Notes under the pieces: generated by a model
Databases searched by the model: none
Told to the model about the DNA's origin: nothing
The model's input: the letters and a program-made list of their open reading frames with translations, nothing else
IMG/VR virus record: IMGVR_UViG_3300028920_002946
Span: 32,001 to 96,000 of that record
Reading direction: 5' to 3' (one strand)
DNA: 64,000 nucleotides
Source: a virus
In this document: positions 35,860 to 62,580 of the stretch, piece after piece
How positions within the stretch are numbered: position 1 is the first letter of the stretch
Layout: each line of letters begins with the position of its first letter
Program-made: the position numbers and the translations under genes

Positions 35860-38115
35860 TTACTTCCGCCAAACGTAGAGGGGTTCCCCCTCCTTCTGCC
35901 TGCTGCGGGTGTTCCAATACCGGGTGGGCAGCCCCTCGAGGCGCGTGCGCGGAAGGGCGCAATGCAAATTGCGCGGGAGATTGAGGACCAGGTAGCCGCC
36001 CGGCTCCAAAGCCGATTCGGCATACTGGAAAATCAGCCCCATAAGATCCCTCCACTCCCCGCGGCCCATTTTCCTGCCGTACACCTCCAAATCGATGTAC
36101 GGGGGCGAGGTAAACACAAGATGGCACCTTTCGGGGGCGCCCTCCAATGAGAACCCGCCGTGAACGAGGTCGCACCGGGCCGCGGACACGAAATCCCTCA
36201 TGGCGCACAAACCCTTGTGGGTCTTGCCCCAAGGCTCGAACCCCACGTAGGACCTCCCGCTGGAAACGGCCCCCAGCATCCGGCCGCCCCATCCCGCGCA
36301 CGGGTCAACGACAACGCCCCCAGGGGGGCTGTAGCGCTCGACGACAGCCTTGGCCACCACGCTCGGAAACGCGGTGACGCCCCCGCTGTACTGTATCAAC
36401 GCGTTCCGGACGAATTTGGGAAGTATGCTTTTCTTGGACTTCAGGCAATACTGCAGGGTCGAATGAAGCGTGGAGTGCCCGGAGAAGGTGTCAGCCGGCG
36501 AAACCCCGCGATATGTGGCCTCGCTCATATGGGGCATGTAGTGCTTGAACAACTCATCACCCACGTTTGCATACCTCAAGACCGTATCGGACTTCCACAG
36601 GTATCTGCTCTGAAACGACTCTATCAACTTCCAGGATCGGCGAAGATACTCGTCCCCGTACCGGGGAGCCGGGAACCCCTTGGAATGATAGTAGGCAACC
36701 GCGTCGTGCAGCACCTCCGGATTCAAGTCAACCACGTACTTGTTTACAAAAGACAAATCCAGGTCGGTGTTGACGGCGGGCTTGAACAACTCCGGAAAAT
36801 AGGTTTCCCAATAGGAGCCCAAATAACCCTCATCGGACGACTTGTACCAAAAGCCGGGCAGTATATACTCACCGGGCACAGGCTCGATGCGCAACGTCCT
36901 TCTGGCGGCGTTCTTGAAGAAGAATCGATTCTCCAACGACCCTATAATGGACTTCCCGGCAGTGACTATGTCCCCTTGTGAACCGTCATCCATGAAATAG
37001 CACGCCCGGCCGAGGTCATTCAATTCGGCGGCGATCATCTCGAAATTCCTGGACCCATCCGGGTTCAGATACCTGCAGTATTCATCGAACCCCGGGCACG
37101 AGAGGCCTATCTGCTCCTCGGACACTATCACACAGTCCTCATAGGCCTGGCCCTTCCTCGGCACCGTAACCACATTGGACAGATGATCCCGCAGTATCTG
37201 CGCCTTCACGTAGAGGTAGCTCAGCTGCGCCAAGGAATGGTTGACCACAAAGCGGCCGTTGAAGTCCAAATGGCCGTCGCCCATCAGCCATCCAAGCAGC
37301 ATCTGATGCACATCCTCGTCGCGGGGGGGCGTCTCCATCGGGGGGCGCCCCACGAGAAGATCCCGTATGGCCTCCAAGTCGCCGCTCCAGGCGACCCTTC
37401 TTTCAGGCAGCGCTATGCCCGCCTGCGCGATCCTGCGATGAAGGACGGTTTCCGAAACCCCCCTCTCCCGGCTGAGGGCCGCAACGCTGCCGGCCTTTTT
37501 CAAGGACTCCTCAAACTCCTCGTCGCTTCCGGAGTTGGCGATGCCCCTGGCCCTGTGTATCCGGTGCCACCTCGGGCCATCGAGGCCGATGCTCTTGATG
37601 TGGATCAAGAGGTCATCATCGTTTACACGGACGCCGTGGATGCGCTCTATCTCACCCGCCATGTCGACAACGCGCATGTCGCGGGACAGCATATCCTCCA
37701 CATCGCTCTTCTTGACATGCCCCCTGAGCCATGTCCGGTTATCCAATGACTTGATGCCGAACCTCCGGAGCCACCACCCAGCCGTATGTCTCGTAAGGGC
37801 CAGCCCGAATTCCTCATTCAAGGCCAAGGCGACCTGTTCGTAGCCGAACTTCTTGGTCTCGCACAGATACCGGGCCCGGTCTTTCATCGCCGCCGTCCAC
37901 GACGACTCCCCGAGAACCTGGGAAGCGGCGGCGCGCTTGGGCTGGATAAGGCCCTTTTTCTTGAGGAGGGAGATCTGCCTCTTGACCCAACGAGGCGTCT
38001 GACCGAGACGCTCAGCCATCTCGGCATTCTTCATCGATGAGTAGTTTTCGACGATAAACTTGAGGTTCTCGGGGGTCTTGCGGTCGGCGGTGACGCCCCT
38101 CTTTGGCGTGCTCAT
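35860..38115 (-). CDS. HTH-LAGLIDADG endonuclease-DNA amino-methyltransferase fusion (copy A)
   Basis: HTH repeats; LAGLIDADG helices MLLGWLMGDG and RACYFMDDGS; NHSLAQLSYL; MTase motif I VVDPCAGWGGRMLGA and motif IV FTSPPY. Start moved to ATG 38115 because of the promoter position. Confidence 0.8.
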   Translation of the reverse strand: MSTPKRGVTADRKTPENLKFIVENYSSMKNAEMAERLGQTPRWVKRQISLLKKKGLIQPKRAAASQVLGESSWTAAMKDRARYLCETKKFGYEQVALALNEEFGLALTRHTAGWWLRRFGIKSLDNRTWLRGHVKKSDVEDMLSRDMRVVDMAGEIERIHGVRVNDDDLLIHIKSIGLDGPRWHRIHRARGIANSGSDEEFEESLKKAGSVAALSRERGVSETVLHRRIAQAGIALPERRVAWSGDLEAIRDLLVGRPPMETPPRDEDVHQMLLGWLMGDGHLDFNGRFVVNHSLAQLSYLYVKAQILRDHLSNVVTVPRKGQAYEDCVIVSEEQIGLSCPGFDEYCRYLNPDGSRNFEMIAAELNDLGRACYFMDDGSQGDIVTAGKSIIGSLENRFFFKNAARRTLRIEPVPGEYILPGFWYKSSDEGYLGSYWETYFPELFKPAVNTDLDLSFVNKYVVDLNPEVLHDAVAYYHSKGFPAPRYGDEYLRRSWKLIESFQSRYLWKSDTVLRYANVGDELFKHYMPHMSEATYRGVSPADTFSGHSTLHSTLQYCLKSKKSILPKFVRNALIQYSGGVTAFPSVVAKAVVERYSPPGGVVVDPCAGWGGRMLGAVSSGRSYVGFEPWGKTHKGLCAMRDFVSAARCDLVHGGFSLEGAPERCHLVFTSPPYIDLEVYGRKMGRGEWRDLMGLIFQYAESALEPGGYLVLNLPRNLHCALPRTRLEGLPTRYWNTRSRQKEGEPLYVWRK

Positions 38116-38121
38116 GGCATA

Positions 38122-38150
38122 AATATACAGCGACCCAAGAGCCGTGTCAA
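38122..38150 (-). promoter_or_regulatory. Sigma70-type promoter for LAGLIDADG-MTase A (leaderless)
   Basis: Minus strand reads TTGACA-cggctcttgggtcgctg (17 nt)-TATATT-tatgcc-ATG; no SD. Confidence 0.8.
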
Positions 38151-38171
38151 CTAGGGCCTTACATTTTTTCG

Positions 38172-39053
38172 TTACATGGAGCCAATCCAATTACGCCTCG
38201 ATTGAACTCCGGGTTTGGAATAAGGCCCCAAAGCCGAACTGATTCCTATACCGTAACGCGGCTGCTTCAGACCGCGGACGATTTTTATCGATTCCTTGGC
38301 CTGCTCCGCGGCCTCCTTGAACTCGGTCAGGAAGTTGTTCTTCATCGACTCGTACTTCGACGACTTCTCGAGATCCAGGGAGACCCCCGATATGCTGTAG
38401 CCGTATTCGTCGGCGATCCAGTTGAGGGCCACGGCCGCGCAGGCCATGGCGGCCGCGCGCATCAGCACGGTAGTTCTCCACCTGATGGGCATGTCCGTGA
38501 GGCTGACCCCCGTGACGGGCGGGTAGGAGTTGAACAGGTCCACCGCCATGAGGAGGTACTCGTAGAGCTCCTCGTCCTCCCATATGTACCCGAACACCTG
38601 CGTCTGCGCCTGCAGGAACTTCTCGTGGGACGGCGGCCGGAAGCGGTAGTTGCGGTCGGGGTTGTTGTCCCGCAGGATGATGCGCAGCCTGCGGACCATG
38701 AGGTCGGCCGTCTCGTCGCCGGTGACGCTGACCGTGACGCAGTCCTTCACCACGTTGAAGGCCTGGACGGCCTCCACGAGCGGAGAGGTCGGGGTCTCGC
38801 GGAAGTTCCAGCGCACGAGCCAGTCGCCGATGTTCGAGTCCAGGGGCAGCGTGGCATCCACGTAGTACTGCCCGGTGCCGGAGGTCGCCGGCACCCTGTC
38901 CGGCGCCCCTATGAGCACCTCCACGCCCGTGGTGTCGTCGAAGAGGGAGTACCGGATGTAGGCCGGGTCCGTCGGGACCCCGGAGCCGTTCCTTACGGTG
39001 ATTTTCAGGTCGTCCTGCGCGAGGGTCTGCCCCGGCTTGAAGGCAACTGACAT
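38172..39053 (-). CDS. Head-tail adaptor/neck protein (gp13/gp15-like) with N-terminal Ig-like domain
   Basis: RRLRIILRDNNPDRNYRFRPP...IWEDEELYEYLLMAVDLFN..PP...YSISGVSLDLEKSSKYESM. Confidence 0.6.
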   Translation of the reverse strand: MSVAFKPGQTLAQDDLKITVRNGSGVPTDPAYIRYSLFDDTTGVEVLIGAPDRVPATSGTGQYYVDATLPLDSNIGDWLVRWNFRETPTSPLVEAVQAFNVVKDCVTVSVTGDETADLMVRRLRIILRDNNPDRNYRFRPPSHEKFLQAQTQVFGYIWEDEELYEYLLMAVDLFNSYPPVTGVSLTDMPIRWRTTVLMRAAAMACAAVALNWIADEYGYSISGVSLDLEKSSKYESMKNNFLTEFKEAAEQAKESIKIVRGLKQPRYGIGISSALGPYSKPGVQSRRNWIGSM

Positions 39054-52939: not shown

Positions 52940-53998
52940 CTACAGTATGTCGGAGACGTCCAAATCGTCCCCGAGGTCTATGCCCTCGTCCGCCGACCCG
53001 GACGTCAGCTTGCTCCTCATGGCCCCCTTGGACATATCCTCCTCGGGGCGCCTCGTCACCTTGGCGACCTCCCGGGCCTCCGGGTTGCCGACCACCTCCA
53101 CCTGCGGGCTGTTCGGGGCGGAAACCGTCCCCTTCTTGCTCGCGGGCGTGGAGGCCTTCTTCGCAACCGTGTTCTGCTGCACCACCTGGCGCTTTCGGGC
53201 CTCGGCGTTCTGCTTCGCGCGCGCCTTGGGGCCGCGGTCGGTGACCTTCGCCACCTCCACGCCGCCGGCCTCGCCCTCGACCACCAGGTGCTTGCGCCCC
53301 TTCTCGGCGGGCTCGGGCGGCGGGGCGGTCTCCTTGACCACCCTCTGGCCCTCCACCACCGGAAGGTGGCCCTCCTCGATGTCCTCGGCGAGGGTTATCG
53401 CCCCGTCGGACGACTCGGCAGCCTGCCGCGTGCTCTCGGAAACGGTAGCCGCCACGCGAGCGTCCCCGTTTTGGGCGCGGATTTCGCCGCGGATGTCGTC
53501 CATGTCGCTCTGGACCACGGTATCCTTGTCGGAGTAGCTCTGGCTCTCGTACTCGCGCACGATCTGCCCGAGGTCGTCCGTCTCGACGCGCGCCGCGCCG
53601 GCGCCGCGCCCCGTGCGGCCCTTGTAGAAGTTCTGCTCGATCGCGGGGTCGCTCTGCTCGACCTGCCTGCCGCCCATGGCGTTGTACGTCCTCGCCGGGT
53701 TCACGACAGGCCGATCGTGCATGTCGGGATCCTCCGCCTCCTCGTCGCCGTCGGCCTCCTGCAGCCACTCGCCCTCGCGGACGGCGACCTTGAGGGAGGA
53801 CGACGACCCGCGCACGTCGCCCACCTGGAAGTTGACCCCGTCGTAGTCGATCATGTCGCCGGGGCCGACCTCGAGATTCTGCTTGCCGCCCTCATAGCTG
53901 ATGCTGAACGGCTGCGTCACGATGTACCTCTTCATCCTGTTGGCCACGTGGCCCTCCTTTTGGATAGGGATGTCCTTTGTTCTGTATATGGCGCTCAC
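52940..53998 (-). CDS. Hypothetical low-complexity protein
   Basis: 352 aa, charged, probably largely disordered; 4-nt overlap with the upstream gene. Confidence 0.65.
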   Translation of the reverse strand: MSAIYRTKDIPIQKEGHVANRMKRYIVTQPFSISYEGGKQNLEVGPGDMIDYDGVNFQVGDVRGSSSSLKVAVREGEWLQEADGDEEAEDPDMHDRPVVNPARTYNAMGGRQVEQSDPAIEQNFYKGRTGRGAGAARVETDDLGQIVREYESQSYSDKDTVVQSDMDDIRGEIRAQNGDARVAATVSESTRQAAESSDGAITLAEDIEEGHLPVVEGQRVVKETAPPPEPAEKGRKHLVVEGEAGGVEVAKVTDRGPKARAKQNAEARKRQVVQQNTVAKKASTPASKKGTVSAPNSPQVEVVGNPEAREVAKVTRRPEEDMSKGAMRSKLTSGSADEGIDLGDDLDVSDIL

Positions 53999-55236
53999 GC
54001 CGCGGATCCCCGCAGCGGTATCTCCTCCACGTCCTTGTCCGAGTTCTTGAAGACCACCTTGTCCACCTTGAACGTCCTGCCCCTGAAGGAGTCGTCGCCC
54101 AGCACCCTGTCGCCCCTGCCCTTCTTCACGTAGGCGATGGTGATGTGCGGGACGTACGTCGGGTAGGAGTTCTCGTTCGGGACCGCCTTCTCTATGGCGT
54201 AGTGCAGGTCCTGCAGCTCCGGGGACTCGGCGTCTATCTTCACCACGTCCTGCTTGTCCGAGTCCTTGAAGACGGTCACCAGGCCGAGCCTGACCTCGAA
54301 CGGCCCCACCTTCCCGACCTCCGACCGCAGCGTGTCCGTGACCCTCCTGGGCTTCAGCCCGTAAAGCAGGGTGATGTGCATCTCGTCCTCCCTGCCGGCC
54401 GTCCCGTCGTCGTCCTCCTTCAAGTCGGCGTCGGGGACGTTCTTTTTGCCCCAGGCGATGATCTGGTCGCCCAGATCCTTCGGGAGGTCCACCTGCGTGG
54501 TGGAGTGGTCGTACTCCCCCTCGCTGTTCGCCTTCTTGTTGCGCGGGAGCGCGGGCTTTCTCGGCCTCTTGCCGTCGCGCACGTCGCGCAGGAACTTGAA
54601 CAGCGCGTCAAGGCTGTCGAACTCCTCGTAGGAGCCGCCGGAGCCTATGTCGTCCAGGAACCTCTTCTCCCTCTCCGAACCCTTGCCCCCGCGGTAGAAC
54701 AGCACGTGGTCGACGTTCAGGACGCAGGCGAGCTCGTCGTATATGTTCTCCTCCGGCTCCCAGTCCTCGTCCGTGGGGTCGATGAAGGCGAAGTCGCCCC
54801 CGAACTCCTCGACGACGGCCCTGCGCCATTTGTCGCCGTCCGAACACCGGCCGCCCAGGAAGACGGACGGCTTGTCTGACTCGATGGCCTTGAACATCCT
54901 CCCGCGGAGATCCGACGCGAACTTGGCCACGACCGACTCGGGGGAGGCACCCTCGTGCATGGGCACGTACTCCCCGCCGACGTACCTGAACTTGGGGTTC
55001 AAGGACTCCATCCTATCCCAGGGATAGGCTTCCAAGACACCCTTGAAGTCCGGCCCCAGGTCGTTGATCGAGATGACGCGCGCCGGATCCCCGCGCATCG
55101 GGGGGAGCCTGACGCTCCTGCCGTCCCTCAAATCCTGGATGACCCGTTTGACATCGCCCCCGGGCAGACACTCGAAACAGAGATCCACGGTTTTCCCGCC
55201 GTGGGAGGCCCATGGGGCGGCGGTGCGGTCAGTCAT
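53995..55236 (-). CDS. Nucleoside 2-deoxyribosyltransferase-like domain fused to a 2H phosphoesterase (Acb1/gp57B-like)
   Basis: SVFLGG.C...WRR...FIDP...W......YDEL..V..VDHVLFY (NDT-like). Two 2H motifs, EMHITLLYG and VPHITIAY. ATG 55236 with SD GAGGGGAGG. Confidence 0.8.
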   Translation of the reverse strand: MTDRTAAPWASHGGKTVDLCFECLPGGDVKRVIQDLRDGRSVRLPPMRGDPARVISINDLGPDFKGVLEAYPWDRMESLNPKFRYVGGEYVPMHEGASPESVVAKFASDLRGRMFKAIESDKPSVFLGGRCSDGDKWRRAVVEEFGGDFAFIDPTDEDWEPEENIYDELACVLNVDHVLFYRGGKGSEREKRFLDDIGSGGSYEEFDSLDALFKFLRDVRDGKRPRKPALPRNKKANSEGEYDHSTTQVDLPKDLGDQIIAWGKKNVPDADLKEDDDGTAGREDEMHITLLYGLKPRRVTDTLRSEVGKVGPFEVRLGLVTVFKDSDKQDVVKIDAESPELQDLHYAIEKAVPNENSYPTYVPHITIAYVKKGRGDRVLGDDSFRGRTFKVDKVVFKNSDKDVEEIPLRGSAA

Positions 55237-55307
55237 CAAGCCCTCCCCTCTCCGGGGACTCCCGCTTTGTAGACAATATAATGGCTCGGAGCCCCATTCT
55301 TAACCCT

Positions 55308-57998: not shown

Positions 57999-58012
57999 AT
58001 TAACAGAGTATT
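57999..58012 (-). promoter_or_regulatory. Candidate late promoter (metallopeptidase operon)
   Basis: AATACTCTGTTAAT. Confidence 0.65.
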
Positions 58013-58048
58013 GGATTTAGGGCAGTAGGCGGCACCCCGCCGGCGCGG

Positions 58049-58276
58049 TCAGTACCCCTGTTGCTGGCTTCTGCCGTACGGGTAGAAAAACGTCGTGCCT
58101 GCGCCCTGCAGGTTGCGCTGGTGCTGGAAGTCTATGTCGCGGACAAGATTCCCCGAAACGTTGATGACGGCGTCGCCGTCGGCGCCGCCCATGTCGGAGT
58201 CGCGGAGGTTGTAGAGGCCCCCGGTCCCGCCCGTGCTCTGGTTCGCGCCCTCCTGCCCGACCCTTCTGTCTGACAT
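58049..58276 (-). CDS. Small hypothetical protein (75 aa)
   Basis: ATG 58276 with SD GGAG; own late-promoter motif at 58316. Confidence 0.55.
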   Translation of the reverse strand: MSDRRVGQEGANQSTGGTGGLYNLRDSDMGGADGDAVINVSGNLVRDIDFQHQRNLQGAGTTFFYPYGRSQQQGY

Positions 58277-58315
58277 GTCGCCGACTCCTATGCTGTGTGG
58301 CACATAGGATCCGGC

Positions 58316-58329
58316 ATGAGAAGAATATT
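58316..58329 (-). promoter_or_regulatory. Candidate late promoter
   Basis: AATATTCTTCTCAT, 22 bp after the stop of LAGLIDADG-MTase B. Confidence 0.6.
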
Positions 58330-58351
58330 ACCTGAAAGGAAGTCCGCGGGA

Positions 58352-60946
58352 CTACCGGAACATACCCAGGAACGAGTCCCTCAAGCCCTTGTCCCGGGCG
58401 GCCGCGAAGAGACTCGCCTTGAGGTGCGCGTACGGTTTGCCCGCGTTGAAGAGGCGCTTCATCCTCGATGCAGGATTGCCTGTCGCACTTTCATAGGCGC
58501 CGAACCCCAACGCATCGCCCGCCAAATCGCAAGCATCAAAATACTCCCGTATCCTGTCGACGGGCTTCTTCACGACCCGCCCCGGCTTAAACCCGCACGA
58601 TTCAACGAACTTGTTCCATGAGCCGAATCTGCGCTCCAACACGTGTGCGGGCACGCCGTTGATGCCGTGCCCCTCATAATTGCCCCGTGCAAGCCCGATG
58701 GACGGCGCATTTTCCTTGAACCAACAAACCGCGCCGTCCAAGTCATACCTTTCACGGAAGACACGACGTCCCCTTCTTCTCCTCACCCCTCGAGGCGGGC
58801 GCTGTGTGTGCCTGTCAGGGGGCTCCCAAGTGATAGGGGGGGCCTCGTCAACCGAACAGAAGGACAGAATATCCTCATGGGCCCCGCCATTGAAGTTTCT
58901 GACAGGAACGGCAAACTTCTCAAACAGATGAAACCCCACAGACTTGCAGAGTCGTATGGTGTCCTCTATCAAAGGCGCGCAGGAGCGCTCCGAAAGACAC
59001 ACGGAGAACACCCCGCCGGGCGCAAGCGACCCTATGCAGTTGCGGACGGTGGGATCCCAATAACCCTCTATCCACCGCCGATAGTCGGGGAACTTCGCCA
59101 CACTCTGGGTGCTCTCGTCGCTGTACCTTTCGTAATCGAAGTACGGGGGGCTCGAGAAGGCGACGCTAAAGGCCCCGGGTTTGGGGCCGAAACCCTCCGA
59201 TCCGGATTTGACCACATCAAACCTCCCCCCGACCACGGGACGAAGAAACGACCCGAAGCGCTCCAAGTTGGAGGCCGTCTCCGAACAGGGTTCGACGCAC
59301 ACATAGTCCATGCCCAGAGACATGGCCCCGAGCATGCGGGACCCGTACCCGCCGCTGTAGTCCAGCACCCGCCCGTTGGCGCCATACCTGTAGAACACAA
59401 ACCTCGCCACGGAGGGCTTGAAATTGCTCACGCATAGCCGCATGGCCTTGAATCCCCTGCGCATCGAAGCCTCGCCCACGCGGTCCGCATGCTCAAGGCG
59501 GTTTCTGACATAGCCCCGCATGAAGGACTCGTCCCGCCACAAATCAACAGGCGAGGCGTGGCCCTTGCGGCTCGCGGAGTACATGTTCGGAAAAAAGCCC
59601 TCGCACAGTATCATGCCCGCCGAACTATGAGCCAAAACGCCCCCCTCGTCCCTGATAATCGATGAACGCTTGAAAGACGAAGCCAGATACTCGGCCCTCT
59701 TCGCGCTGAGGGACATATAGGGAAACGGTTTGCCCCAATATCTTCTGAACAGGGTGTCCTCCATCGCCGACTTCACGGGATCCGGGGACAGCCGATAGAA
59801 TTTCGGGCGCGGGTCGCCGACGAGCGCGGACACCCGGGCGACCTCCTCCGCGGACAGGAAATCCTCGGGTATCTTGTAGTACATGTCGGGGGTGGCGACC
59901 CCAAGCACGATGCGGAAAAAATCGCGGTAGTGGCTTTTCGACACTGTCACGTTATGGCCCGAAAGGGAAAACCCCCATCCGTATCTGTCCTCCAACCAAC
60001 CGACGAAGCGCTCAATCTGCGAGCGGTCGCCGCAGAAGTTGGCTATGGACATCTGCCTCCTCTCGTCGTCGTAACTGCCGTCGTCCAGGAACCAATAGCC
60101 CAAAATGCGGTCATCCCAATTCTCCTCGATGAACTTAAGAGGGACTGCCTTGCCCGGCACACCATCGGTGTAGAAGGCTTCTCGAAACTCCGCGAAAGCG
60201 GGATGCGTGACCGTATTAATTCTGAACTCATTTCTATCGTGATCCTTCATAATTCTATTTGAGTAGGGCTCAAGGGCAACCATCTTGCTTCTTAAGTAGT
60301 CTTTTTGTTTTGCCGAGTGAGTTTCATAATATCTCGGTGACCTGTCGATGCCGCCGTCGCCGAGGAGGCCCCCTATGATGAGGAAACGCTGCTCTTTGGT
60401 AAGAGCGGGATATTGACCCTGTCGCCAATCCTCCTTTGGCCCTATGCCCCTCTGACGTAGAACAGGAAGCCAAACGGTCTTCGACAACCCCACCTTCTCC
60501 GAAAAAGCGTCGTTCGTCATGGAGTGGTACATGGATCGCAATTCATCGGTCGACATGGAAACCAGACGTTCGGACGCGTTCCGCGTCTTTGAAAATTTGT
60601 CCGTAGCGAGCAGACCTATCCTTTTTCGTCGGTATGCCACACCCGGGCCTGTCAAGCCGAAACGACGCCCAATTTCCTCGTCGGAAAGTCCCTGCTCGCA
60701 AAATCCCTTGAGGACATCATCCGTCAATAGCTTTCTCAGCCCCTTTTTCTTGCCCGTGTACGCAACACGGACATCAGAGCGACCAACGCTCTTGGGGTTT
60801 GTGGGAATGCCGTATTTCCTCAAGAGCTTAAAAACGGCGTCCTCAGTCACTCCGACCAACGAACCTATCTCCCGGCACCGAAGACCGTGTGTGGAGTACA
60901 GCTGCCTAAGACTCTCTTCATCGAGTTTGTCAAACGAATAGTTCAT
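58352..60946 (-). CDS. HTH-LAGLIDADG endonuclease-DNA amino-methyltransferase fusion (copy B) with C-terminal homing-endonuclease-associated repeat
   Basis: Three HTH repeats; LIIGGLLGDG, THSAKQKDYL, LGYWFLDDGS; MTase VLDYSGGYGSRMLGA and FSSPPYFDYE; C-terminal HVLERRFGSWNKFVESCG. Start moved to ATG 60946. Confidence 0.8.
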   Translation of the reverse strand: MNYSFDKLDEESLRQLYSTHGLRCREIGSLVGVTEDAVFKLLRKYGIPTNPKSVGRSDVRVAYTGKKKGLRKLLTDDVLKGFCEQGLSDEEIGRRFGLTGPGVAYRRKRIGLLATDKFSKTRNASERLVSMSTDELRSMYHSMTNDAFSEKVGLSKTVWLPVLRQRGIGPKEDWRQGQYPALTKEQRFLIIGGLLGDGGIDRSPRYYETHSAKQKDYLRSKMVALEPYSNRIMKDHDRNEFRINTVTHPAFAEFREAFYTDGVPGKAVPLKFIEENWDDRILGYWFLDDGSYDDERRQMSIANFCGDRSQIERFVGWLEDRYGWGFSLSGHNVTVSKSHYRDFFRIVLGVATPDMYYKIPEDFLSAEEVARVSALVGDPRPKFYRLSPDPVKSAMEDTLFRRYWGKPFPYMSLSAKRAEYLASSFKRSSIIRDEGGVLAHSSAGMILCEGFFPNMYSASRKGHASPVDLWRDESFMRGYVRNRLEHADRVGEASMRRGFKAMRLCVSNFKPSVARFVFYRYGANGRVLDYSGGYGSRMLGAMSLGMDYVCVEPCSETASNLERFGSFLRPVVGGRFDVVKSGSEGFGPKPGAFSVAFSSPPYFDYERYSDESTQSVAKFPDYRRWIEGYWDPTVRNCIGSLAPGGVFSVCLSERSCAPLIEDTIRLCKSVGFHLFEKFAVPVRNFNGGAHEDILSFCSVDEAPPITWEPPDRHTQRPPRGVRRRRGRRVFRERYDLDGAVCWFKENAPSIGLARGNYEGHGINGVPAHVLERRFGSWNKFVESCGFKPGRVVKKPVDRIREYFDACDLAGDALGFGAYESATGNPASRMKRLFNAGKPYAHLKASLFAAARDKGLRDSFLGMFR

Positions 60947-60953
60947 GATAGGT

Positions 60954-60982
60954 AATATAGCATTTGGAGATGCTACTGTCAA
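60954..60982 (-). promoter_or_regulatory. Sigma70-type promoter for LAGLIDADG-MTase B (leaderless)
   Basis: Minus strand reads TTGACA-gtagcatctccaaatgc (17 nt)-TATATT-acctatc-ATG. The TTG that the track took as a start is the -35 box. Confidence 0.8.
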
Positions 60983-61041
60983 TAGTTCTTTTCCCTATTT
61001 CCCAAATGCATATGTTTGCGCTAACGACCCTATAAGTAGAC

Positions 61042-61072
61042 AAAAAAGAGTCGGGGACGAATCCCCGACTCT
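61042..61072 (-). terminator. Rho-independent terminator after the major capsid gene
   Basis: 11-bp stem AGAGTCGGGGA/TCCCCGACTCT, TTCG tetraloop on the minus strand, followed by a T-tract. Confidence 0.9.
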
Positions 61073-61094
61073 CTAATCTGCAACTCGACTGCTA

Positions 61095-61976
61095 CTAGCG
61101 AGCAATCTTCACGCGGCACAGCGCCAGCGGGTTGTAGCAACCAATCCCAAGGTGTTCGAAAATGCTGAACCCTATCCTTCTTGCCCGGGGATCGTCTGCG
61201 CTCAGAACTGTGAGTTCTGTACGGACGGGAATACGCCCGAAGAACTCCGGCTCCGCGCACACGTAGGCGTACCCACGCGCGACCTTACGAGAGACGATGA
61301 CCTGCGCGCCCCAGAGGGTGGCGAGCATGCCGCTCTTCAGCAGCGTGGCCTGGCTCTCGAGGTCGAGGACATCGCGGCCCCACTTCCTCAGGTCGGCGAA
61401 GTCCAGCGCGTTCATGAACACGCGGGCGACCCTGAGGTCGTGCGTCTCGATGCGCGCGTAGGCGTCGATGAGGTTGGAGGGGGTGAGCGGCGCCACGGCG
61501 TTGACCTGGGCGTTGGTGTAGCTGCTGTCCAGGTTGTCGAAACCGTTCGCAGCGACGGCGTCCATGACGTCGAAGATGCGTCCGTCCTCAGCGGCCTGGA
61601 TCTGCGCCTTGCCGAGGTCCTGGGCGCGCTCGATGATGTCGAAGCGGCGCTCCTTGACCTGGGTCAGCGGGATCTCAGGGTTCGAGGCGAGCTCGAAGAG
61701 CGGGAAGGTCACCCTGCGGCCCTTGACCACGGCCAGGATGTTCTCGCCCTCTTCGCCGACCACGAATGCGGTGACGTTGGGGTCCTTGTCGTAGATGGGC
61801 AGTGCGCCATCCGGGAGCTGCTCGACCAGGAATGCCTTCCTGGCGACCGACGTGTAGTCTCTCCGCAGACGGAGAGGCTGGATCATCGACGCAGCGATCT
61901 TCGCACGGCCGGAGGCCGTCTTCAGATACTCGTTGATGATTTGCTGCTTGACCTCGTTGCTGATAGTGTCAGGCAT
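61095..61976 (-). CDS. Major capsid protein (HK97 fold)
   Basis: MIQPLRLRRDYTSVARKAFLVEQLPDGALPIYDKD...FPLFELASNP.I.LTQVK.RRF...QAAED...LWGA.VIVS; strong SD CAGGAGG; followed by a terminator; scaffold-decoration-MCP gene order. Confidence 0.9.
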   Translation of the reverse strand: MPDTISNEVKQQIINEYLKTASGRAKIAASMIQPLRLRRDYTSVARKAFLVEQLPDGALPIYDKDPNVTAFVVGEEGENILAVVKGRRVTFPLFELASNPEIPLTQVKERRFDIIERAQDLGKAQIQAAEDGRIFDVMDAVAANGFDNLDSSYTNAQVNAVAPLTPSNLIDAYARIETHDLRVARVFMNALDFADLRKWGRDVLDLESQATLLKSGMLATLWGAQVIVSRKVARGYAYVCAEPEFFGRIPVRTELTVLSADDPRARRIGFSIFEHLGIGCYNPLALCRVKIAR

Positions 61977-62043: not shown

Positions 62044-62580
62044 CTAGATGCGCATCTGGACGGCCATGAACGGATCCGACGTCGACGGGGCGATCAGGCA
62101 GATGCCCACGACGACGCTGCCGCCGGACTCCCTCGTCAGCAGGCCGTTCGGGGACACGTACAGCCGGTCGCCAGCCAGATATGTCTGCGCGGCGGCCGCC
62201 TCGGTGTGCGTCTCGTACAGGTCGGTCGTGAACACCGAACTCGCACCGTGCAGGTACGGGCACTTGCCGCTGGCCACGCCCGAGCTGGACTCGAACGGGT
62301 AGCCGACGGCGTTGTTCAGCACGACCCCGATCACGTCGTAGTCGGCTTTCGCCGCCTTGACGGCCACGCCGCTGTCGCCGACGGACACGACCGATCCCGC
62401 CAGCAGACCCTTCGGGGTGTCGGCGCTGAGGCGCGTGTTGGCCATCGCCTGGGCGTTGGTGGCGGGGCGGTTGTCCTGGGTGAGGTCATCCTCGTTCAGG
62501 TTCATCAGCGTGTTGAGGTTCCCGCGAGACAGGACGTTCATGCCTCTGTCAGGGACGATCCCACTTGCTTCTCCGATCAT
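62044..62580 (-). CDS. Capsid decoration/cement protein
   Basis: 178 aa beta-rich protein between scaffold and MCP; G.VV...SG..PYLHG...F.TD.YE...Y..GD.LYVS.NGLLT. Confidence 0.7.
   Translation of the reverse strand: MIGEASGIVPDRGMNVLSRGNLNTLMNLNEDDLTQDNRPATNAQAMANTRLSADTPKGLLAGSVVSVGDSGVAVKAAKADYDVIGVVLNNAVGYPFESSSGVASGKCPYLHGASSVFTTDLYETHTEAAAAQTYLAGDRLYVSPNGLLTRESGGSVVVGICLIAPSTSDPFMAVQMRI

Follow-up and report, generated by a model that had tools for sequence, protein, structure and literature searches.

A probably mobile cassette encoding a LAGLIDADG nuclease fused to a methyltransferase at the capsid locus of a very large phage

Two kinds of selfish nuclease, homing endonucleases and restriction-modification systems, are regarded as separate. 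The former are thought to escape cutting themselves through insertion, or through a host polymorphism, that destroys their target, and the latter through methylation. Who would then expect a nuclease of the first kind and a methyltransferase within one and the same polypeptide? A gene of this sort, referred to here as copy B, lies directly behind the major capsid protein (MCP) gene in a 64,000-nucleotide stretch (the window) of the IMG/VR virus record IMGVR_UViG_3300028920_002946. The source record measures 182,677 bp and its completeness is estimated at 39%, so that it should be a piece of a phage of roughly 470 kb. Copy B encodes helix-turn-helix (HTH) modules, a LAGLIDADG nuclease, an amino-methyltransferase and a helical C-terminal domain, and a paralogue, copy A, is present elsewhere in the window. 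We hold with good confidence that copy B is a mobile nuclease-methyltransferase cassette; the part played by its methyltransferase is a more tentative matter, discussed below.

Among described systems, the free-standing homing endonucleases Seg and Mob of T-even phages resemble copy B in being stand-alone intergenic genes beside conserved genes, patchily distributed, and equipped with extra DNA-binding domains and their own promoter. Their nucleases are however of the GIY-YIG or HNH type, whereas that of copy B is a LAGLIDADG enzyme, and we know of no Seg or Mob protein of T-even phages that carries a fused DNA-modification domain. The monomeric, two-motif LAGLIDADG_2 enzymes I-SceI and I-WcaI are the best match for residues 180–368 of copy B, both catalytic aspartates included; these are intron-encoded organellar proteins of about 230 residues, while copy B is a free-standing phage gene with HTH, methyltransferase and C-terminal domains in addition. 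As for the fusion of LAGLIDADG nuclease and methyltransferase, we found it described only marginally so far, as a LAGLIDADG domain inserted inside nine actinophage methylases, the Taj_79 group, which form one cluster with no evidence of transfer (PMC9957025). No other literature description of such a fusion family was found, most subscription journals lying outside the search, so that this absence is not proof. The authors of that study weighed a restriction-modification-like reading, and pointed out that LAGLIDADG had not been described in restriction-modification systems (PMC9957025). A hidden HNH insertion, "ShiLan," is a comparable case (PMC11855218).

The cassette and its site behind the capsid gene

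Copy B stands outside any intron or intein, in the intergenic gap between the terminator of the MCP gene and the candidate promoter motif of the next gene, d0. It is likely to be a homing-endonuclease cassette of the free-standing type, about 2.7 kb long and made of its own promoter and a single gene. Its landmarks are the following, all genes in this part of the window being on the minus strand:

61095–61976, minus strand: MCP gene, the upstream neighbour (phrog_2522, E 3.6e-54; Pfam Phage_capsid)
61038–61074, minus strand: intrinsic terminator of the MCP gene and left boundary of the cassette (stem of 13 pairs, 7 of them GC, 4-nucleotide loop, T run)
60954–60982, minus strand: copy B promoter, sigma-70-type, TTGACA-17-TATATT (11/12 matches, TG before the -10 box)
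58352–60946, minus strand: fusion gene, copy B, 864 codons plus stop
58304–58351, minus strand: right boundary, a short spacer up to the motif ATATTCTTCTCATG (same motif before d0 in the empty-site relative L006)
58049–58303, minus strand: next gene, d0 (GTG start as listed; ATG at 58275)

The site was compared across 80 IMG/VR loci, all of them metagenomic, fetched around MCP homologues 63–93% identical to that of the window. In the two closest relatives, L005 (MCP 93%) and L006 (90%), the MCP gene, its terminator, d0 and d1 follow one another without any insert, the terminator of these empty-site relatives occupying the same place after MCP; the site of L066 is also empty. About 68 loci have enough downstream sequence to be classified. 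A LAGLIDADG-methyltransferase gene comes right after MCP in 25 of these, a LAGLIDADG gene without methyltransferase in 11, a methyltransferase only in 4 and an HTH match only in another 4, while 24 have no family member. A search of two complete relatives, G001 (the L005 contig, 466,729 bp and 98% complete) and G003 (469,617 bp, carrying terminal repeats), returned no family member anywhere; in the fragment G002, by contrast, both of the sites occupied in the window phage hold one. The family is not, then, a fixed possession of all relatives, the outcome that the initial annotation had named as contrary to its proposal: empty alleles exist in L005 and L006, and G001 and G003 lack the family altogether.

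Cassettes are also replaced. The flanks of L009 and L024 are about 91% identical at the nucleotide level and their MCPs 96% identical, yet no nucleotide similarity links their cassettes, whose proteins are 28% identical. The L009 fusion is 45–47% identical to those of L036 and L037, the MCPs of which are only 77–78% identical to its own. This incongruence between backbone and cassette shows that the cassette has been replaced, and not only lost, among relatives. In a maximum-likelihood tree of the methyltransferase domain, five or six deep and well-supported lineages occupy the MCP site, and cassettes of different lineages stand in tandem in L017, L035, L036, and L039.

Other elements use the same point. 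Between L065 and L066, with flanks about 93% identical, the difference is a 3.1-kb insertion encoding an unrelated ROS/MucR-DUF7487 protein. Behind MCP are also found LAGLIDADG-ParB_N genes (L007:8890–10647, L020:8876–10627), a LAGLIDADG-Mom gene (L014:10220–12178; Pfam 32.7 bits, above the cut-off), an RRXRR-DUF7487 gene in L041, and plain LAGLIDADG genes in L031, L034, and L041. The MCP gene, uninterrupted in the window, holds a group I intron after codon ~31 in L027 (2954–3261; Rfam RF00028, 61 bits), and at the same codon there are inserts of about 1.0–1.1 kb in L024 (6917–8038) and in L029 and L038 (6974–8000). The L024 insert contains HTH-LAGLIDADG open reading frames split over two frames; Rfam gave no intron match on it, and it is presumed to be an intron. 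Its open reading frame is weakly similar to copy B (E 0.004), and a direct derivation of the free-standing form from the intron form is not claimed. Since both the post-MCP site and the MCP gene hold so many different types of inserted element in relatives, the capsid locus of this phage clade is a hotspot for homing-type elements.

Could copy B nevertheless be an old and fast-evolving resident gene, repeatedly lost and no longer moving, with a patchiness due to deletions only? We consider this improbable, although part of the evidence leans that way. The post-MCP position is kept across MCPs of 55–93% identity and GC contents of 0.32–0.65. Within a lineage, the identity of the fusion drops steadily with that of MCP and never exceeds it (87% at an MCP identity of 99%, 81% at 98%, and 45–52% at 93–94%), so the fusion evolves much faster than MCP. 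Pairs in which the fusion is more similar than MCP, the signature of recent transfer, are absent among the 865 examined; no very recent transfer is thus seen, which counts against mobility. What a resident gene subject only to deletion does not account for is the L009 locus, with its L024-like backbone and a cassette of the L036/L037 lineage, nor the tandem arrays of different lineages and the unrelated cassette types at the same point. The catalytic residues, moreover, are kept in about 96% of copies, and composition sets the cassette apart: the GC content at third codon positions (GC3) is 0.705 in copy B and 0.77 in copy A, well under the 0.84–0.96 of the flanking genes, those around copy B lying at 0.84–0.94, and the promoter spacer has 42% GC. 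The low-GC patch reported earlier (24/60 at 60241–60300) is exact. Such low GC3 fits arrival from a relative of lower GC, or weaker codon selection. The actively spreading mobile family of the initial annotation therefore keeps its mobility, given the empty sites and the replacement, but not its present-day spread, none of the 865 pairs pointing to it and the closest relative of copy B being 45% identical.

The second site in the window is that of the paralogue:

35860–38190, minus strand: copy A, paralogous HTH-LAGLIDADG-methyltransferase gene, second LAGLIDADG lobe shortened

The two copies are the only LAGLIDADG genes in the 182-kb record. Their kinship, first proposed from the order of domains, is borne out by alignment (25% identity over 513 residues, E 2e-19), and their divergence suggests that they may differ in specificity. 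The copy A site is empty in G001 (L087), and A-type genes were found only in L094 and L099. In the methyltransferase tree, the A-type copies fall in one clade and the B-type copies in another, each tied to its own site and fully supported (100/100 and 100/99, respectively). Two insertions were previously proposed, and both sites are indeed empty in relatives; that these were independent does not follow, for the window phage and G002 share both the A-type and B-type sites, as a resident gene would have it, and inheritance from a common ancestor, then loss in G001, is no less parsimonious than two separate gains. The LAGLIDADG domain of copy A fits the family profile over its first 117 residues only, and is about 25 residues shorter than that of copy B after motif 2; its nuclease half may be undergoing decay, with the methyltransferase motifs retained. 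As a separate observation, the gene upstream of this site (homologue of window 38172–39053) is split by about 1.5 kb in L099 (3731–5209) and L163 (8660–10138), possibly by another intron or inserted element.

How widespread is the architecture? Searched in full with HMMER, a set of 1.84 billion representatives clustered at 50% identity gave 154 matches to copy B at E ≤1e-30 and 1,692 at E ≤1e-10. LAGLIDADG and methyltransferase occur together in 88 of the top 150 clusters, as befits the family, rather than one-off fusion, announced at the outset, and the methyltransferase alone in 37. An IMG/VR scan with the family alignment A2 placed all fusion loci (17/17) directly after an MCP homologue (55–82% identical), in phages with a GC content of 0.32–0.64; the same scan gave 76 methyltransferase-only open reading frames in unrelated contexts. 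That an assembly or frameshift artefact joined two separate genes was considered and ruled out, its likelihood being negligible: the frame is a single one of 864 codons, the 88 cluster representatives and dozens of independent contigs have the same architecture, and the structural model is confident across domain borders.

The gene had been placed at 58352–60982 on the minus strand, where the frame is indeed open over 876 codons from a TTG, but its start has to be moved. The ATG at 60946 is almost certainly the true one, giving a protein of 864 amino acids, because an identical database representative, P0002 (100% over residues 13–876 of the TTG reading), begins there and because the TTG at 60982 is itself the -35 hexamer. 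The stem of the MCP terminator (61074–61045) is followed by a T run and lies about 56 bp before the TTG, close to the 60 bp given originally, and about 92 bp before the ATG. The -10 box ends 7 nucleotides before the ATG, a leaderless-like layout. The unrelated cassette of L065 (2240–2285) is laid out in the same manner, with TTGCAA-17-TATAAT, 6 nucleotides, then ATG; in both (60946–60982 for copy B) the -10 box thus lies 6–7 nucleotides before the ATG without any ribosome-binding site, which suggests leaderless transcripts.

On the other side, 48 bases separate the copy B stop from d0. A conserved motif, AATAyTCT(T/G)yTnAT, occurs just upstream of d0 and d1 (window ~58309–58322 and ~58000–58013; L005 ~9046; L006 ~1378). 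It differs from the sigma-70-type promoter of copy B and is a candidate phage-specific, perhaps late, promoter. Further away, window 53995–55239 (minus strand) encodes a protein of 414 amino acids with nucleoside 2-deoxyribosyltransferase-like and 2',5' RNA ligase/Acb1-like phosphoesterase domains (Pfam E 2.7e-12 and 3.1e-6), possibly an enzyme that counters CBASS (the cyclic oligonucleotide-based antiphage signalling system) or degrades cyclic nucleotides. Upstream of MCP, a head-decoration-like gene (homologous to window 62044–62580) has a tandem duplicate in L041 (2882–4061) and in L070 and L075 (6765–7819).

Modular architecture of the fusion protein

The full-length AlphaFold2 model of copy B, built with 36 homologues, has a mean confidence score (pLDDT) of 89. 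Together with sequence profiles, it delimits the following parts:

60413–60946, minus strand: three HTH modules, residues 1–178 (three three-helix units in the AlphaFold2 model)
59843–60409, minus strand: monomeric two-motif LAGLIDADG nuclease domain, residues 180–368 (Pfam LAGLIDADG_2, E 1.1e-13)
60356–60358, minus strand: catalytic Asp197 in GLLGDGG (kept in 133/139 family domains)
60080–60082, minus strand: catalytic Asp289 in WFLDDGS (kept in 135/139 family domains)
58847–59770, minus strand: amino-methyltransferase module, helical N-terminal subdomain plus Rossmann fold (residues ~381–697 in the model, 393–700 by sequence profile)
59336–59362, minus strand: motif I, DYSGGYGSR, D529–R537 (alignment A1)
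59141–59152, minus strand: motif IV, SPPY, residues 599–602 (alignment A1)
58751–58831, minus strand: disordered, basic, arginine-rich linker (RPPRGVRRRRGRR), residues 706–732 (pLDDT <50)
58355–58741, minus strand: helical C-terminal domain, residues 736–863, with FGSWNKF motif (homing-endonuclease-associated repeat, DUF7487-like)

The HTH region gives a weak GcrA match, and also matches phrog_8446 (E 4.5e-5) and phrog_7545 (E 8.4e-5), which are HTH parts of HNH homing endonucleases. In the nuclease domain the LAGLIDADG_2 match covers profile positions 3–150 of 168, and phrog_11023 is matched at E 2e-17. Two LAGLIDADG motifs in a single chain form a pseudo-dimeric alpha/beta fold. Sequence matches in the PDB are to I-WcaI and I-SceI, also the best Foldseek hits (target-normalised TM-score 0.64–0.70 over ~220 columns). 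A domesticated protein is nonetheless conceivable, in which the LAGLIDADG part would be a DNA-binding module of the WhiA kind and the whole a site-directed methyltransferase or regulator devoid of nuclease activity. WhiA does combine LAGLIDADG with HTH as copy B does, copy A has a shortened second lobe, and the cassette has an early-type promoter. WhiA has however lost its LAGLIDADG catalytic residues, and copy B has kept its own: the metal-binding aspartates of both motifs are conserved in 133/139 and 135/139 domains and are invariant in alignment A2, which argues for an apparently active nuclease. Since fold and sequence are moreover closest to the active I-SceI and I-WcaI, and the pattern of presence and absence is that of a selfish element, domestication is very unlikely.

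In the methyltransferase module, a class I Rossmann fold is accompanied by the S-adenosylmethionine motif I and the motif IV of exocyclic-amino methyltransferases, motif I preceding motif IV. Residues P600, P601, G533, and E584 are invariant across fusions and S599 nearly so. With these complete catalytic motifs, the enzyme is apparently active. Pfam gave no match above threshold on the copy B module; N6_N4_Mtase is matched at threshold in copy A (E 4.3e-6; 27.3 bits vs. a cut-off of 26.7) and more clearly in several relatives. The module aligns with copy A and with 28 stand-alone methyltransferases. Homologues that stand alone, about 330–390 amino acids long, are found in Vibrio, Bacteroides, and Staphylococcus phages; one from a Vibrio phage is annotated as an N4-cytosine methylase, a name that rests on the SPPY pattern only. 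Modelled alone (pLDDT 93), the module returned only generic Rossmann matches in Foldseek. In a wide VIA fold search the best hits were the amino-methyltransferases Trm11, Trm14, TrmN, and METTL5 (Z 16–18), a ranking that puts amino-methyltransferases first without separating DNA from RNA enzymes.

At the C-terminus, the RRFGSWNKF repeat noted at first is borne out in part, a single clear copy of the motif being present and the Pfam HNH_repeat score remaining under threshold (20.8 vs. 26 bits, E 4.9e-4). The profile of this domain matches separate open reading frames in relatives, which are Pfam DUF7487. Neither an NCBIfam search of copy B nor a megablast of its region against GenBank phages gave a match.

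A possible role for the methyltransferase

How would such a cassette work? During a mixed infection the nuclease, guided by the HTH modules and the C-terminal domain, would cut relatives devoid of the cassette, at a long site placed at, or close to, the 3' end of the capsid locus. The carrier genome would then serve as template for recombinational repair and the cassette would be copied in, an intronless form of homing by which the competitor would also be harmed. We infer homing by cleavage of an empty allele near the capsid gene from the site specificity of the family and from analogy with free-standing phage homing endonucleases. As the insertion lies past the terminator, the carrier probably retains the target. 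The fused methyltransferase may then mark carrier DNA, at N4 of cytosine or N6 of adenine, in such a way that its own nuclease spares the carrier. Self-marking of this kind would follow the logic of single-chain restriction-modification enzymes, and it might also protect from host restriction.

Self-immunity is the role that we favour for the methyltransferase, as a proposal held somewhat short of even confidence. The capsid gene is left intact, and the two domains have diversified jointly, as a single unit: for 37 of the 48 fusions, comparison by LAGLIDADG domain and comparison by methyltransferase domain give the same nearest neighbour. The same type of nuclease is, at this site, fused to other domains linked to DNA modification, Mom in L014 and ParB_N in L007 and L020. 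Finally, an engineered LAGLIDADG meganuclease is reported to be inhibited when bases within its target are methylated (PMC3827243).

A different use of the same mobile cassette deserves serious attention, even if we would not count on it: the methyltransferase may be cargo, an orphan anti-restriction enzyme with a short motif of its own, unrelated to the nuclease target, that benefits the recipient phage. Mom of phage Mu is a classical anti-restriction modification, and a Mom domain is precisely what is fused in L014. Stand-alone homologues are common in unrelated phages, among nucleotide-metabolism genes and not nucleases; they interleave in the tree with the fused enzymes, which retain their helical N-terminal subdomain. 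For cargo, however, an in-frame fusion is unnecessary, and yet it is kept in 88/150 clusters; the co-diversification of the two domains and the several tandem cassettes, each with its own methyltransferase, are likewise unexpected. Self-immunity and anti-restriction cargo are not mutually exclusive.

Several observations tell against the proposed mechanism, homing and self-immunity taken together. Modification-free LAGLIDADG genes occupy the same site in L031, L034, and L041, so the nuclease can persist alone, a point that also favours cargo. The common stand-alone homologues in unrelated phages keep the same N-terminal subdomain, so the methyltransferase has an autonomous role. The top folds for this module are tRNA and rRNA enzymes producing N2-methylguanosine and N6-methyladenosine, not DNA ones. 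An unusually conserved synonymous stretch, which might have hinted at the target, was not seen in 66 MCP genes, 3' end and intron codon included. The nuclease and methyltransferase activities of the fusion are predicted from sequence and fold.

It is possible, if on balance doubtful, that copy B represents a homing element with the design of a restriction-modification enzyme, in which the methyltransferase (or, in sister cassettes, a Mom-family or ParB_N domain) makes the target of the carrier uncuttable. If true, an invariant stretch of the capsid locus could be targeted by the nuclease without any need for its host to mutate that stretch, and the cassette would be at once a selfish gene and a weapon against co-infecting relatives. 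It would be the first modification-dependent immunity system based on LAGLIDADG, bridging homing endonucleases and restriction-modification.

Comparison with described systems

Like copy B, the proteins of the Taj_79 group unite a LAGLIDADG nuclease with a phage methyltransferase, in copy B a putative DNA enzyme, within a single reading frame. The Taj_79 nuclease is however an insertion within the methylase, whereas in copy B the nuclease precedes the methyltransferase, within a large family marked by empty sites and replacements. A tblastn search with copy B gave no actinophage match, hence its methyltransferase appears to belong to a different family from the Taj_79 methylases.

Type IIG, IIC, and IIB enzymes such as MmeI, BpuSI, and BsaXI likewise hold a nuclease and an amino-methyltransferase in one polypeptide, with motif I before motif IV, and BpuSI and BsaXI do appear low in the Foldseek list of copy B. 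Their nuclease is however of the PD-(D/E)xK type, working on short sites through a shared recognition domain and in cellular defence, whereas that of copy B is LAGLIDADG. As the nuclease class differs, copy B is not a Type IIG enzyme, and only the logic may be alike. A new hybrid logic of homing and restriction-modification is accordingly something we entertain as a minority possibility, and the family offers a natural system in which to ask whether homing enzymes can achieve self-immunity by modification. It is further a source of many diverged scaffolds of the I-SceI type with extra DNA-binding modules, which are of value to genome engineering, and it can serve to trace gene flow among uncultured phages of about 470 kb.

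With regard to competition between phages, the parallel drawn here is gp210 of PhiPA3, an intron-encoded HNH nickase of a jumbo phage that damages a co-infecting relative (PMC11620839). Like copy B, it is a homing endonuclease in a very large phage; unlike copy B, it is intron-encoded and has no methyltransferase. By analogy, a competitive benefit of the gp210 kind is plausible for the cassette.

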